A stretch of DNA of 64,000 bases from Nitrosomonadales bacterium (lineage in GTDB: Bacteria; Pseudomonadota; Gammaproteobacteria; Burkholderiales; SG8-39). The notes beneath the pieces are model-generated. The model was given only the letters and a program-made list of their open reading frames with translations, was not told the DNA's origin and did not search any database. Numbering within the stretch: position 1 is the stretch's first letter; every line of letters starts with the position of its first letter. Positions 28,134 to 33,291 of this stretch are shown in pieces. The stretch spans positions 199 through 64,198 of the forward strand of contig JAKFDA010000078.1 of NCBI GenBank assembly GCA_036676355.1, read 5' to 3'. The translations under genes and the position numbers were made by a program.

Positions 28134-29201
28134 TTACTTGTGACCGTGCGCCGCCGCTTCATTCTGCGGCACTTTCGCCGGCTGCGTGCCGGGTTCGAAG
28201 GCTTTGAACAACGGGTTGTTGAACTTGCCGTAGCCCTTTTTCATCGATTCGCTCATGTAGAAGTCCGGCTCATACTTGATGTCTTTCCACATGTAGAAAT
28301 CCGGCTTTTTGATGTCTTCGTACTCGAATACCAGCATCGCACCGCCGCCTTCCTTGCCGGCTCCGGTGGTGTGCTCTTCGTTGTGGTCGTGCGCCATCCA
28401 GATGCCCGGGTTGTTCATTTCCACGATCATGTCGTAGCGTTCTCCGGGTTGCATCGGCAACACGTCGACGTAGTAGGGCTTCGGCAGCGGCAGACCGTCC
28501 TTGTGCGTGACCAGCGCATCGTGACCGTGCAGGTGGAACGCCACCGGAATGTTCGGCGCAATCAGGCGCAGGCGCATGACATCGCCCTTCTTGATCCGCA
28601 CAGGCTGGTTATGCGGGTGCGCCTTGCCATTGATGGAGAAGTAATCGAATTCACGGCCGGGCAGGCCGTTCTTGCCGTACTCCTGCGCGACGGACGAGAC
28701 CCAGCCGGACAACATCAGGATGACGTCCTTGGTGACTTTTTTCTCCAGCGGCGTCGGGTTCTTCGGCTCGACGATCAACGGACCCCACATGCCGCGCAGG
28801 TCGATGTGCTCGGCGGTGTTGACATGGCAATGGTAGAACAGCGTACCGGGCTTATCGGCAACGAATTTATAGGTGAAGCTGTCCCCCGGCTCCACCGCCT
28901 TCTGCGACACGTCGGGCACGCCGTCCATCTGCCAGGTCTTGGTCTGGTAGATGCCATGCCAGTGGATGGTATGGCTCATGGTCGTGTTGTTGGTCAGCGT
29001 CACTTCCACCGTGTCGCCTTCCTTCACGTGGATCAGCGGTCCGGGGACCTGGCCGTCATAGGCCCACACCTTGGTGGTGAGGCTGGGCGCGACTTCGAGG
29101 TCGTACTCCTCGATCGTCATTTCGAATTTGCGCAATTCGGCGTGCGCCGAAAGCGTGAAGCCCAGAAACATGAGAAGGGTTAATACAACGCGTATAGCCA
29201 T
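28134..29201 (-). CDS. two-domain multicopper oxidase (NcgA/blue copper oxidase-like)
   Basis: HTIHWHG, YHCHVNTAEHIDLRGM (type 1 Cu in domain 1), FHLHGH, HDH; signal peptide. Confidence 0.9.
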   Translation of the reverse strand: MAIRVVLTLLMFLGFTLSAHAELRKFEMTIEEYDLEVAPSLTTKVWAYDGQVPGPLIHVKEGDTVEVTLTNNTTMSHTIHWHGIYQTKTWQMDGVPDVSQKAVEPGDSFTYKFVADKPGTLFYHCHVNTAEHIDLRGMWGPLIVEPKNPTPLEKKVTKDVILMLSGWVSSVAQEYGKNGLPGREFDYFSINGKAHPHNQPVRIKKGDVMRLRLIAPNIPVAFHLHGHDALVTHKDGLPLPKPYYVDVLPMQPGERYDMIVEMNNPGIWMAHDHNEEHTTGAGKEGGGAMLVFEYEDIKKPDFYMWKDIKYEPDFYMSESMKKGYGKFNNPLFKAFEPGTQPAKVPQNEAAAHGHK

Positions 29202-29259
29202 GGTGATATTCCGTTCCGCTGGATAGTTTTGAACTGCTTATTCGTTACTTCCCGATTCG

Positions 29260-29292
29260 GAGATGGAACAGGGCGCACCCCTGTTCCATCTC
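29260..29292. repeat. perfect 14-bp intercistronic hairpin
   Basis: GAGATGGAACAGGG-cgcac-CCCTGTTCCATCTC directly after the cytochrome c stop. Confidence 0.7.
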
Positions 29293-29643
29293 TTAATTTT
29301 TCTTACAGCACAGCTCGCGCAAATGAGCGACAAGCGCGTTGATATCGTCATCGGTGAAGTTGCCGCCCCAGACCGGCATCAGAACCGACTTGTTGATCGC
29401 CTTGCCGCCTTGCTGGATCACCTTGAACAGTTCTGCGTCGGTACGTGCGGACATCTCCTTGGTATCGGTATGATCACGCGGTGCGACCGACATCGAGGCG
29501 GCGTTGACACCCTTGCCGTCGCCGTTCACGCCGTGACATTGGGTGCAATACAGTTTGTACAGTTGATCACCGTGATCAGCGTCGGCAGCATACGACCCGG
29601 CGCTCAGAGCCAGCAGAGAGATGGCGAGGAATAATTTTTTCAT
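29293..29643 (-). CDS. monoheme cytochrome c (NcgC-like)
   Basis: Signal peptide MKKLFLAIS, CTQCH, distal MPVWG; GGAGA RBS. Confidence 0.9.
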   Translation of the reverse strand: MKKLFLAISLLALSAGSYAADADHGDQLYKLYCTQCHGVNGDGKGVNAASMSVAPRDHTDTKEMSARTDAELFKVIQQGGKAINKSVLMPVWGGNFTDDDINALVAHLRELCCKKN

Positions 29644-29645
29644 GG

Positions 29646-30332
29646 CTATTTCTCCCCGATGACTTTGAGGTAGTCGGCAATCTTCTTCACCGACGCCGCA
29701 TTGAGATCGCCCTTGGGCATCAGCGTATGCGGATCCCACGCGACCGGGTTGCCCATGTAAGAGGCGATGAACGCCGGCTGCAGGCGTTGCCACGCGGTGT
29801 AAAGCTCCGGTCCGGACAGGCCGCCCTCGCCGGGTGCATCCTGATGACAGGCATCGCAACCCTTGAACTTGCCGAAGTTCATCTGCCCCATGCGCTTCGC
29901 GATCGTCCCGGGCTGATAGGCCTCGGCCTTGATCAGGTTATCGAAGGGCTTCAAGGTCATCAGGTAATCAGCCATCGCTTCCGCCTGCGCGGCCGGCACC
30001 GCCGGATGCTTGATCAGCGTGCTTGGATCGACCGTGTCGCCATCGGCGCCGCTCTTGACATGCGCCGCAGGAAATTCCCCCGCGGGCCGGATACGGGTCG
30101 GGTTCTGCAGCCAGCTCACCAGCCACGCGCGCTGGAACTTGTTGCCAGCGTAATCCAGCGGCGGTCCTTTGCGATCGGCGCGTTCCACCAACGGCGCGGC
30201 CGCATAGTCATGAGAGAGCGCATGACAACCGGCGCATTGCGCCTGCACATCACTCGCCCCATCGGCGTTCGCCGCGAGCGGAAGACCTGTCATAAGCAGG
30301 ACCGCGGCGCCAAAACTGAGTAACCGTTTCAC
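29646..30332 (-). CDS. diheme cytochrome c (NcgB-like)
   Basis: Signal peptide, CAGCH and CDACH; AGGAGA RBS before GTG. Confidence 0.9.
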   Translation of the reverse strand: MKRLLSFGAAVLLMTGLPLAANADGASDVQAQCAGCHALSHDYAAAPLVERADRKGPPLDYAGNKFQRAWLVSWLQNPTRIRPAGEFPAAHVKSGADGDTVDPSTLIKHPAVPAAQAEAMADYLMTLKPFDNLIKAEAYQPGTIAKRMGQMNFGKFKGCDACHQDAPGEGGLSGPELYTAWQRLQPAFIASYMGNPVAWDPHTLMPKGDLNAASVKKIADYLKVIGEK

Positions 30333-31592: not shown

Positions 31593-31637
31593 GTAGTTTT
31601 CCCCTAGAGTTTTTGATATAAGCTCGTTTGACCTATA

Positions 31638-31652
31638 TCAAGAACTGGGCCA
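31638..31652 (-). promoter_or_regulatory. sigma54-like -24/-12 promoter for nirK
   Basis: Minus strand TGGC-CCAGTTC-TTGA: canonical spacing, -12 is GA instead of GC. Confidence 0.6.
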
Positions 31653-31691
31653 GAATAAATCCAGTGAATTTTCATCATCTTGCATTTATTT

Positions 31692-31754
31692 GATGTCGCT
31701 TAAACAACTGCTTTAAGGATGTATTCATGACAACAGAGATGTTTTAGTGACGAC
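31692..31754. promoter_or_regulatory. three tandem NorR boxes (GT-N7-AC)
   Basis: GTcgcttaaAC 31695-31705, GTattcatgAC 31721-31731, GTtttagtgAC 31741-31751; each preceded by GAT and followed by (A/G)AC. Confidence 0.85.
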
Positions 31755-33291
31755 ATCGAACGCCTTCGTCAACCTCGCCGGAGTGGTCGCGGATCTTTCC
31801 AAAGCCATGGCGCGCGAATTGCGCTACACCCGCCTGCTGGATGCGTTCAAGCGCAGCTTTCCCTGCGATGCCATTGCATTACTGGAGCGTGACGGCGAAT
31901 TGCTGGTTCCGCGTGCGGTGGAGGGTTTAAGCCGCGATACGCTCGGGCGCCGTTTCGTGATCCGTGATCACCCACGTCTCGCGCAGATCGTGCATAGCGC
32001 CGAACCGGTGCGCTTTCCGGCCGACTCCGCGCTGCCCGATCCCTACGATGGTCTGGTTGATGAAGCCGACGACCATCATCTCTATGTACATGACTGCATG
32101 GGCGCGTCGCTCTATATCGACGGACAGCCGTGGGGCGTCGTGACGCTCGACGCACTGACTCCGCAAAGTTTCGACGCCATAGACGCCGATATTTTCCGGG
32201 CGTTTGTTGCGGTTGCCGCCGCCACGGTGCGTGCCGCGGACTGGATTCAGCGACTCGAAGCGCAACTGGAACGGCATCACCGCATTCAGCAGTCCAACGT
32301 GCAGGACGGCTCGGGCGACGAACTGATCGGCCACAGCCTGACCATGCTGCAACTGCAACGCGAGACACAGACGGTCGCCTCCTCCGATCTGCCGGTTTTG
32401 ATTCTTGGCGAGACGGGCGTGGGAAAGGAACTGATTGCGCGCATGATTCACCGCCATTCGGCCCGCGCGCAGGAACCGATGGTGTATATCAATTGCGCCG
32501 CGCTGCCGGAGTCGATTGCCGAGAGCGAGCTGTTCGGCCACATGCGCGGCGCGTTTTCGGGCGCGACCGACGATCGCATGGGCAAGTTCGAACTCGCGCA
32601 CGAAGGCACGCTGTTCCTCGACGAAGTGGGCGAACTGCCGCTCACGGTTCAGGCCAAGCTTCTGCGCGCGCTGCAAAACGGCGAGATTCAGCGCGTCGGG
32701 AGCGACCGGCATCATCGCGTAGACGTGAGGGTGATCGCCGCGACCAACCGCGATCTGAAGCAGGAAGTGGCCACCGGTCGCTTCCGCGCCGATCTCTATC
32801 ATCGGCTGAGCGTCTATCCGCTGATCGTGCCGCCTCTGCGCGAACGCGGCGAGGACGTGCTGCTGCTCGCCGGCTATTTCATCGAACGCAACCAACGCCG
32901 GCTCGGCTTGCGCGGCGCGCGACTCAGCCGCGGCGCGCGTCAATGGCTTGCGAGTTATGCGTGGCCCGGCAACGTGCGGGAACTCGAACACACCTTGTCG
33001 AGGGCGATGATCCGCGCCTTGAGCGTAGCGCCGTCGCGTGACCGCATCCTCGAATTGACCACCCAGCATCTGGGCGCCGACGGTCGAACCAAGCCGATCG
33101 AAACCGTACTCGCCGTCGAGAACGTAGACTGCGATGCGCGTCCGCTCACCGAAGTGATGGAGTACGTCAGGCGCGAAGTCATCCAGGCACGCCTGCAACA
33201 GCACGACGGCAACCGCGCCGCGGCCGCCCGCTCACTCGGCCTCGATCGCGGCAACTTTCATCGACTGCTGAAAAAGATAGGGTTGAACTGA
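31747..33291 (+). CDS. norR: NO-sensing sigma54-dependent activator NorR
   Basis: GAF with [20 protein letters not shown] (iron-ligand positions of NorR); AAA+ [33 protein letters not shown]-terminal HTH. Confidence 0.93.

Follow-up and report, generated by a model that had tools for sequence, protein, structure and literature searches.

Introduction

Nitric oxide (NO) is sensed in bacteria by several regulators that differ in what they control. Passages in PMC1274295 give the known targets of NorR, a sigma-54 dependent activator, as norVW, norB/norAB, hmp, hcp, dnrN and nnrS, and treat their products as NO-removing enzymes; the same source names NsrR, DNR and NnrR, which respond to NO or nitrite, as reported or predicted regulators of the nitrite reductase genes nirK or nirS. 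In Nitrosomonas europaea nirK is found together with ncgABC, and according to parts of PMC5080386 nirK is harmful there when ncgABC is missing, while Nitrobacter takes up NO when nirK is expressed. The enzyme that turns NO into nitrite in nitrifiers is described as still unidentified, and the role of NcgABC as unresolved, in passages of PMC6967387, PMC6478695 and PMC5080386; NirK working in reverse is a named candidate for this NO oxidoreductase (PMC6478695, in part), and a two-domain multicopper oxidase (MCO) acting on another nitrogen intermediate, hydroxylamine, has been described (PMC11761707, in part). Here we analyze a five-gene locus (positions 28134-33291) in a 64,000-nucleotide stretch of a Nitrosomonadales genome (assembly GCA_036676355.1, contig JAKFDA010000078.1; the whole stretch is called the window below), in which a norR gene stands divergent from an operon of nirK, two c-type cytochrome genes and an MCO gene. 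All functional statements about this locus draw on its sequence and on comparison with relatives.

We find that NorR and sigma-54 very probably drive the nirK operon, from predicted binding sites and a predicted promoter that keep fixed relative positions in 38 species. What the operon does is a more tentative matter. We read it as an NO-inducible operon for a periplasmic four-protein module of copper and haem electron transfer, a reading to which we assign a probability of about 45%, and we hold at that same tentative level the proposal that the net job of the module would be the removal of NO.

Results and Discussion

Predicted NorR and sigma-54 sites at the nirK promoter

The norR product scores 716.8 bits on the NorR equivalog model NF003451 (cut-off 476; residues 9-514) and is built of GAF, Sigma54_activat (PF00158, 233 bits), AAA_lid_14 and HTH_8 (PF02954, Fis-type) domains. 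These scores and the gene calls agree with a preliminary description of the locus, which had placed NorR divergent from nirK, dihaem cytochrome, monohaem cytochrome and MCO genes and had credited it with all GAF iron-ligand motifs. Five residues that we take to be the ligands of the GAF non-haem iron (R75, D96, D99, C113 and D131 in E. coli numbering) are indeed identical to those of E. coli NorR in the window protein, in its paralogue on contig C93 of the same genome, and in four nirK-linked orthologues. The AAA+ loop reads GAFSGA at residue 268, a one-residue variant of GAFTGA, and the genome carries two full-length rpoN (sigma-54) genes (G000:C71:71443-72849 and C93:72560-73942).

The spacer between norR and nirK is 154 bp long. 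Three GT-N7-AC boxes and a TGGC-N7-TTGA promoter facing nirK are present where the preliminary description had put them (Table 1); the promoter reads TGGCCCAGTTCTTGA (TGGCCC-N5-TTGA) on the minus strand, 31652-31638, with the GG at -24, the right ten-base spacing and GA at -12. No second sigma-54 site of the TGG-N9-TGC type was found by eye on the plus strand of the spacer.

The case for regulation comes from phylogenetic footprinting of 38 orthologous norR-nirK spacers from different species, each anchored on its best sigma-54 match. Counted from the TGG of the promoter, the distal box lies at -101 to -97 in 29 of the 38 promoters, the middle box at -80 to -78 in 37 and the proximal box at -54/-53 in 34, with stray boxes outside these three offsets numbering 10 in total across the whole set. 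All three boxes are exact in 26/38 promoters and the proximal pair in 33/38, and the extended box consensus is tGtTGTCAttnnGACAaCa. The -24 element is TGGC in 35/38 promoters; at -12, 18 promoters have TTGA and 11 have TTGC. The bases between the conserved dinucleotides diverge among species while the offsets between promoter and boxes stay fixed, and it is because boxes and promoter keep these offsets in 38 promoters that control of the nirK operon by NorR and sigma-54, already proposed in the preliminary description, is now strongly supported.

Box counts say nothing of the kind. GT-N7-AC occurs 176 times in the window against 166 +/- 11 in shuffled sequence, which is the chance rate, and further chance triples are present. 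In the 3.07-Mb genome the composite triple was seen three times where by our own estimate about five are expected, i.e. without enrichment; two of the three adjoin norR start codons, of which the genome has two. With both the single box and the triple at chance frequency, we dropped significance by box count and therefore put the weight on the place and the conservation of the boxes.

The nirK promoter also has a box of the FNR/DNR type, lying over its -12 element (Table 1). For the pattern TTGA[TC]-N4-[AG]TCAA the genome has 23 matches where about 3.7 would be expected; copies stand upstream of nosZ and nirS, and positions outside the window include G000:C27:11189 and C79:20341. Such a box overlaps the -12 element in 11/38 norR-nirK promoters; relatives differ in how far it lies from the nirK ATG (about 32 to 56 nt) and agree in the overlap. 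Because the box is tied to the sigma-54 promoter and its distance to the ATG is variable, modulation of that promoter by an FNR/DNR-type factor, possibly repression in anoxia, suggests itself as a speculation.

In one soil RNA library (X19), contigs identical to the window occur at 31413-31593 (the 5' end of nirK) and 28319-28543 (part of the MCO gene) only, and the nirK contig ends one base upstream of the ATG, at 31593. Coming from one study, as contigs only and with DNA carry-over possible, they show neither transcription nor a start site; another run (X20) is probably DNA, and stretches left uncovered carry no information. Since the centre of the FNR-type box lies about 42 nt from the ATG and this contig ends at 31593, we also considered the box as the site of a class II activator with a leaderless nirK mRNA. 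That reading was not adopted: the distance to the ATG varies, the overlap with the -12 element is fixed, and a contig end is not a start site.

The four proteins of the operon

The window proteins were scored with NCBIfam equivalog models, Pfam domains, alignments to PDB homologues and a map of the open reading frames (ORFs). In the resulting layout norR, on the plus strand, stands back-to-back with nirK, dihaem cytochrome c, monohaem cytochrome c and MCO genes on the minus strand (31592-28134), and an operon structure for these four genes is strongly supported. The true start of the monohaem cytochrome is the ATG at 29643, two bases past the stop of the dihaem gene. All four products have signal-peptide-like N-termini, and their predicted destination, the periplasm, is strongly supported as well.

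The top PDB match of NirK is 4KNS (335 bits, E 2.8e-99), which we take to be the NirK of N. europaea. The motifs HSIDFHA, YHCG, EHISRGM, FHPIAG and DHSM, presumably containing the ligands of the type-1 and type-2 coppers together with the catalytic Asp and His residues, are identical to 4KNS in the alignment. On the equivalog TIGR02376 the protein reaches 174 bits, under the cut-off of 296.3, and the 38 nirK genes of this type all lie at 148-186 bits, likewise below the cut-off. Evidently the model leaves out the clade of N. europaea-type NirK, in which 4KNS, the solved member, gives the 335-bit match. For the MCO, the best PDB matches are 2ZWN (426 bits) and 3G5W (396 bits), over residues 22-337, and its motifs HWH, HCH..H..M, HLH and HDH align as type-1 copper and trinuclear-cluster histidines in two cupredoxin domains.

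Distribution, gene orders and changes of regulator

A scan of one genome per species returned 88 relatives of the window NirK, from which 80 loci were kept and searched by tblastn with the five window proteins. The neighbourhood survey, a step that the preliminary description had put forward, found norR divergent from nirK-dihaem-monohaem-MCO in 37 of the 80 loci (contig ends truncate some of these, and one has a split norR). Another 17 show this nirK-first order and no norR within reach; in five of them the sequence upstream is shorter than 1.3 kb. The arrangement reported for N. europaea, MCO-dihaem-monohaem-nirK, accounts for 15 loci; the MCO gene is directly upstream of nirK in five (four complete dihaem-monohaem-MCO-nirK, and L061, cut by a contig end), one reads nirK-MCO-dihaem-monohaem, three combine nirK and two cytochromes with a different sigma-54 activator and have no MCO, and two are odd or truncated. 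The dihaem cytochrome is syntenic in at least 70 of the 80 loci. With the four genes together in most of the 80 loci, in at least four gene orders and in several phyla, their linkage as one evolutionary unit is strongly supported.

Among the carriers of the norR-linked form are Zoogloeaceae, Rhodocyclaceae, Chromatiaceae, Woeseiaceae, Steroidobacteraceae, Porticoccaceae and Pseudohongiella; cultured carriers are Denitromonas halophila SFB-3, D. ohlonensis SFB-1 and Cognatazoarcus halotolerans HKLI-1, from among the Zoogloeaceae/Rhodocyclaceae. In the three loci without an MCO (L075, L076 and L081, of Nitrospirota and Nitrospinota), nirK and the two cytochromes are followed by the other sigma-54 activator, which matches NorR in its AAA+ and helix-turn-helix (HTH) parts only. 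In one Pseudohongiella locus (L039) a classical NirK gene with an internal TAA lies just beyond norR (G026:C21:495941-496846, 333 bits on TIGR02376) and may be a pseudogene.

A quick NirK tree, with branch support by SH-aLRT (an approximate likelihood ratio test) only, separates the group with the N. europaea order from the nirK-first group. Within the latter, the starred branches force at least four changes between norR-linked and other loci, a count to be taken as an upper view, some of the other loci being merely truncated. Among the upstream ORFs of loci that do not have norR, 7/20 are divergent genes of the Rrf2 family (NsrR-like; L037, L052, L054, L063, L085, L066 and L078), and five of these loci fall within a well-supported NirK clade of nine rows that also includes three norR-linked loci. 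Because Rrf2 loci and norR loci share one well-supported clade, the module has come under an NO-type sensor on at least two occasions, each time with a different regulator.

Gene content was tallied in 37 other carrier genomes (38 with the genome of the window), using metagenome-assembled genomes (MAGs) of unstated completeness, where absence means not found with the query. For NO reductase (NOR) genes, whose co-occurrence the preliminary description had proposed to survey, the quinol enzyme (qNOR) or cNorB was found in 27/37, which suits feed-forward denitrification, and neither in 10/37, which lends circumstantial support to NO removal. A nirS gene was found in 19/37 (plus one weak d1-like match), and narG or napA in 12/37, with neither found in 25/37. 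The nirK-linked NorR is the sole NorR found in 35/37 genomes; a second NorR-type GAF protein occurs in the other two, in one of them beside a true hmp. Flavohaemoglobin (Hmp) scored above cut-off in 2/38 genomes and was not found in 36/38, flavorubredoxin (NorV) in 0/38, and a classical NirK in 1/38, there with an internal stop, with a longer NirK-like gene in five more. In six genomes (G011, G023, G026, G027, G028 and G037) none of NOR, nirS, nar, nap or hmp was found. All carriers are aerobes with several haem-copper oxidases. Since nirS occurs along with the cluster in 19/37 genomes and in this one, the NirK of the module would not simply be the respiratory enzyme.

Denitrification genes elsewhere in the genome

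As the preliminary description observed, the window contains no NO reductase, flavorubredoxin or flavohaemoglobin gene; the NO reductase matches in the genome are all on contigs C93, C63 and C79. The qNOR, at C93:7421-9718 (about 1300 bits to solved qNORs), belongs to a cluster (C93:5062-9718) in which the second NorR, 51% identical over the full length, is divergent from a RIC/YtfE-like norA and the qNOR gene. The norR2-norA spacer has three boxes (C93:6608, 6628 and 6653) and then TGTCAC-N5-TTGCT, the same layout as the nirK spacer, and this shared box type could allow cross-talk between the two paralogues. A cNorB gene is on C63. On C79 there is an sNOR-like cluster (L089, G000:C79:12000-23000) of SCO1/SenC, a divergent COX1, for which no PDB match was found at E <= 1e-10, and a COX2-like gene; it is divergent from a PAS-domain sigma-54 activator and adjoins nirS (cd1 nitrite reductase, 578 aa). 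With nosZ, narG and napA also present, the host is by its gene content a complete heterotrophic denitrifier with a cd1 nitrite reductase, in which nirK is extra.

These genes bear on an argument of the preliminary description, that an NO sensor inducing an NO producer is paradoxical. The argument is overstated and not sound, because NsrR, DNR and NnrR are reported or predicted to control nirK or nirS (according to parts of PMC1274295), because NsrR plays the same logical role in N. europaea, and because the genome has, elsewhere, a qNOR with its own NorR, cNorB, the sNOR-like cluster and nirS; the absence of NO reductases from the window misleads.

Proposed function and its alternatives

In the mechanism that we envisage, NO would nitrosylate the GAF non-haem iron of NorR and so release its ATPase, by analogy with E. 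coli NorR. NorR, bound at three GT-N7-AC enhancer sites that reach across the start codon of norR itself, would then activate the sigma-54 polymerase at a promoter (TGGCCC-N5-TTGA) whose distance from the proximal box is about 54 nt. Transcription from this promoter would cover all four genes of the operon, from nirK through the two cytochrome c genes to the two-domain MCO, and autoregulation would follow from the box that overlaps the norR start. In the periplasm, NO would be oxidized to nitrite at a copper site, either the type-2 copper of NirK running in reverse or the type-1 copper of the MCO, with electrons passing via the two cytochromes to the trinuclear centre of the MCO and on to O2. 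The FNR/DNR-type box over the -12 element may, speculatively, veto the promoter in anoxia. The physiological role of such a system would be to hold NO down and not to respire nitrite.

We infer this role because the known targets of NorR are NO removers and the operon is the only visible target of NorR in most carriers, and because many carriers apparently have no other means of NO disposal or no respiratory source of nitrite, while half own nirS. Circumstantial support for NO removal also comes from the nirK-linked NorR being the only NorR in 35/37 genomes, from NOR, nar, nap and hmp often not being found, and from the Rrf2 regulators of sister lineages. We also count in its favour the harm reported for nirK without ncgABC in N. 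europaea and the NO uptake of Nitrobacter expressing nirK (PMC5080386, in part), the naming of reversed NirK as a candidate NO oxidoreductase (PMC6478695, in part) and the two-domain MCO active on a nitrogen intermediate (PMC11761707, in part), besides the signal-peptide-like starts of all four proteins and the linkage of their genes in several orders. Ceruloplasmin has NO oxidase activity, and we regard the MCO as an equally good candidate as NirK for the NO-oxidizing site.

Several points weigh against NO removal. Reversal of NirK is kinetically highly unfavourable at cellular pH and potential (parts of PMC6478695), and on these published grounds reversed NirK is doubtful as the site of NO oxidation. 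Induction by NO does not by itself point to removal, because NO-sensing regulators induce NO-forming nitrite reductases in ordinary denitrifiers (passages in PMC1274295). The host itself is a full denitrifier with three NOR-type enzymes and therefore has no need of another NO sink. The gene absences come from MAGs of unstated completeness, the RNA hint is limited to the two short X19 contigs, for which DNA carry-over is possible, and where a canonical sigma-54 promoter has GC at -12 the nirK promoter has GA.

A more far-reaching version of the NO-removal reading is possible, with the odds against it. NorR together with NirK, the two cytochromes and the MCO would form a self-contained and widespread aerobic NO oxidase, which senses NO, oxidizes it to nitrite with O2 and replaces flavohaemoglobin and NO reductase in many heterotrophic Proteobacteria; it would be the long-sought NO oxidoreductase linked to NirK/NcgABC in nitrifiers, and an FNR-type factor on the -12 element would shut it off in anoxia.

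The operon might instead serve feed-forward denitrification, with NirK reducing nitrite to NO, the cytochromes as its dedicated donors, NorR giving an NO-dependent autocatalytic induction like that by NnrR or DNR, and the MCO scavenging O2 or acting as a second electron sink. NirK has indeed lost no copper ligand, nor the catalytic Asp or His, NO-responsive regulators commonly control nir genes (PMC1274295, in part), and the promoter has an FNR/DNR-type box such as also precedes nosZ and nirS; that box, however, sits over the -12 element, a repressing and not an activating position, and control of nir genes by NorR was not reported in the literature searched. Nitrate reductase genes in this genome and 12/37 others, and a NOR for the product in 27/37, suit this account, but where nar and nap (25/37) or NOR (10/37) were not found it would mean NO-induced NO production without an outlet, and nirS is already present in 19/37. 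Considering also the reported harm done by nirK without ncgABC in N. europaea (PMC5080386, in part), we think feed-forward denitrification unlikely, if a serious contender.

The two remaining accounts fare worse. NO poisons haem-copper oxidases, and NorR might turn on a copper-only, NO-insensitive respiratory bypass in which cytochrome c feeds the MCO (with O2) and NirK (with nitrite), removal of NO being at most a side effect. Here two copper enzymes of the terminal-reductase type and two soluble cytochromes do come under one NO sensor, the carriers are all aerobes with several haem-copper oxidases, and the blue copper oxidase of N. europaea reportedly oxidizes cytochrome c; yet NirK would raise NO in the genomes where NOR was not found, no evidence came to light on how two-domain MCOs respond to NO, and the constant pairing of NirK and MCO is left unexplained, all of which makes a bypass improbable. 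The boxes might, finally, serve norR alone, with TGGC-N7-TTGA fortuitous and some other factor driving nirK. The chance frequency of the box pattern taken alone, the departure of the -12 element from GC and the overlap of one box with the norR start codon, as autorepression would predict, are what such an account can call upon; it is very hard to reconcile with a promoter and boxes at fixed mutual offsets in 38 species, amid diverged intervening bases, and with the adjacency of norR and the nirK operon in 37 loci, and we give it next to no credence.

To return to NorR control and the NO-removal reading, the parts (the NorR switch and the nirK/ncgABC module) are known and their combination is a variant; the combination of NorR with nirK-ncg was not found in the literature searched, which covered few subscription journals. 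The same four-protein module is here wired to a classical NO-detoxification regulator in heterotrophs, and many such genomes show no other genes for NO handling or denitrification. nirK would thereby join the NorR regulon, which bears on the reading of metagenome nirK counts as denitrification potential, and the cultured isolates among the carriers make the question open to ordinary genetics and NO-electrode assays.

Other features of the locus and its neighbours

The gap between nirK and the dihaem cytochrome gene contains an inserted dispersed repeat (Table 1), of which the genome has at least 20 near-full copies of about 277 nt (82-91% identity) as well as short forms consisting of its two ends. 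In a soil DNA run (X1) the repeat reaches 368-fold depth against about 14-fold in its flanks, and some joints bypass it; the nirK-dihaem spacer is about 40 nt in relatives, with the exception of L008. The hairpin between the monohaem cytochrome and MCO genes may be an element of mRNA processing or stability or a partial terminator. An Rfam search of 27400-33600 gave no match at E <= 0.1.

Table 1. Positions in the window of the genes, control elements and other features of the norR-nirK locus
Feature	Position	Strand	Basis or remark
norR, NO-sensing sigma-54 enhancer-binding protein, 514 aa	31747..33291	+	NF003451 and Pfam domains; GTG start
nirK, copper nitrite reductase of N. europaea type, 314 aa, signal peptide	30648..31592	-	4KNS alignment
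Dihaem c-type cytochrome, NcgB-like, 228 aa, signal peptide	29646..30332	-	CAGCH and CDACH; Pfam Cytochrom_C
Monohaem c-type cytochrome, NcgC-like, 116 aa, signal peptide	29293..29643	-	CTQCH; Pfam Cytochrome_CBB3
Two-domain multicopper oxidase, NcgA-like, 355 aa, signal peptide	28134..29201	-	2ZWN/3G5W; Pfam Cu-oxidase_3, Cu-oxidase_2, Cu-oxidase
Predicted NorR box, distal from nirK promoter, GTTTTAGTGAC	31741..31751		GT-N7-AC; overlaps norR GTG start
Predicted NorR box, middle, GTATTCATGAC	31721..31731		GT-N7-AC
Predicted NorR box, proximal, GTCGCTTAAAC	31695..31705		GT-N7-AC
Sigma-54 type promoter facing nirK, TGGCCC-AGTTC-TTGAT	31637..31652	-	Match; start near 31627 predicted
FNR/DNR-type box, TTGATATAGGTCAA	31628..31641		Overlaps -12 element of nirK promoter
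Dispersed repeat copy, ~277 nt, MITE-like (miniature inverted-repeat transposable element), between nirK and dihaem cytochrome gene	30363..30639		Genome copies
Hairpin, perfect 15-bp stem, immediately after monohaem cytochrome stop, before MCO gene	29259..29292	-	No coding-strand U-tract

Directly 3' of the MCO gene and on the same strand (23136-28067, minus) lie genes for a DUF2946 protein (27615-28067), a TonB-dependent receptor (25445-27502), a DUF1775/YcnI-like protein (24830-25348) and a CopC-CopD fusion (23136-24779), which look like a copper-acquisition cluster adjoining the copper-rich enzymes. We considered the copper-uptake genes as part of the unit and rejected this, the DUF2946 and TonB-dependent receptor genes having no tblastn match in any of the 80 loci.

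Comparison with known systems

In its control region the locus resembles E. coli norR-norVW, where a divergent norR and three GT-N7-AC enhancer sites likewise precede a sigma-54 promoter; in the K-12 record the three boxes of the norR-norV spacer read GTCA-N3-TGAC, at intervals of 21 and 24 nt, with TGGCAC-N5-CTGCA after them. The GAF iron-site residues, AAA+ domain and HTH are shared, and the window protein scores above the NorR equivalog cut-off. The target here is nirK-cyt-cyt-MCO, whereas in E. coli it is flavorubredoxin. The boxes here are 20 and 26 nt apart, with a further 53-54 nt to the TGG (E. coli: 21, 24 and 66), TTGA stands at -12, and the AAA+ loop is GAFSGA in place of GAFTGA. 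The Ralstonia-type norR-norA-norB (qNOR) system, of which C93 holds this genome's copy, has a box layout that similarly abuts the norR start codon; it differs in its targets, which are a quinol NO reductase, an enzyme type proven to remove NO, and a NorA resembling RIC/YtfE, and in its -24 element, TGTCAC.

With nirK or nirS under NnrR, DNR or NsrR the locus would have in common the NO-dependent induction of a nitrite reductase (as described in parts of PMC1274295). The regulator family and sigma factor are different, the reductase here is tied to an MCO and two cytochromes, and carriers of the module frequently gave no match for nar, nap or NOR. The archaeal MCO Nmar_1354 (9CCK) shares the two-domain fold with the window MCO (E 8e-30) and offers a precedent for O2-dependent oxidation of a small nitrogen species (PMC11761707, in part); it is only a distant relative, its substrate is hydroxylamine, and the window MCO has no pendant cupredoxin domain. 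Ceruloplasmin can be set beside it as a second such precedent.

The closest counterpart of the operon itself is nsrR/ncgABC-nirK of N. europaea, as the preliminary description had recognized together with the other gene order and the control by NsrR. The same four types of protein occur in both, the closest solved relatives of NirK and MCO are 4KNS and 3G5W, and both clusters appear to be under a regulator responsive to NO or nitrite. The gene order is nirK-dihaem-monohaem-MCO here and MCO-dihaem-monohaem-nirK there, an arrangement of 15/80 loci with a separate NirK clade. The predicted regulator is an activator at a divergent position, NorR with sigma-54, in contrast to the Rrf2-family repressor NsrR, and the host is a heterotrophic denitrifier where that of the N. 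europaea cluster is an ammonia oxidizer.

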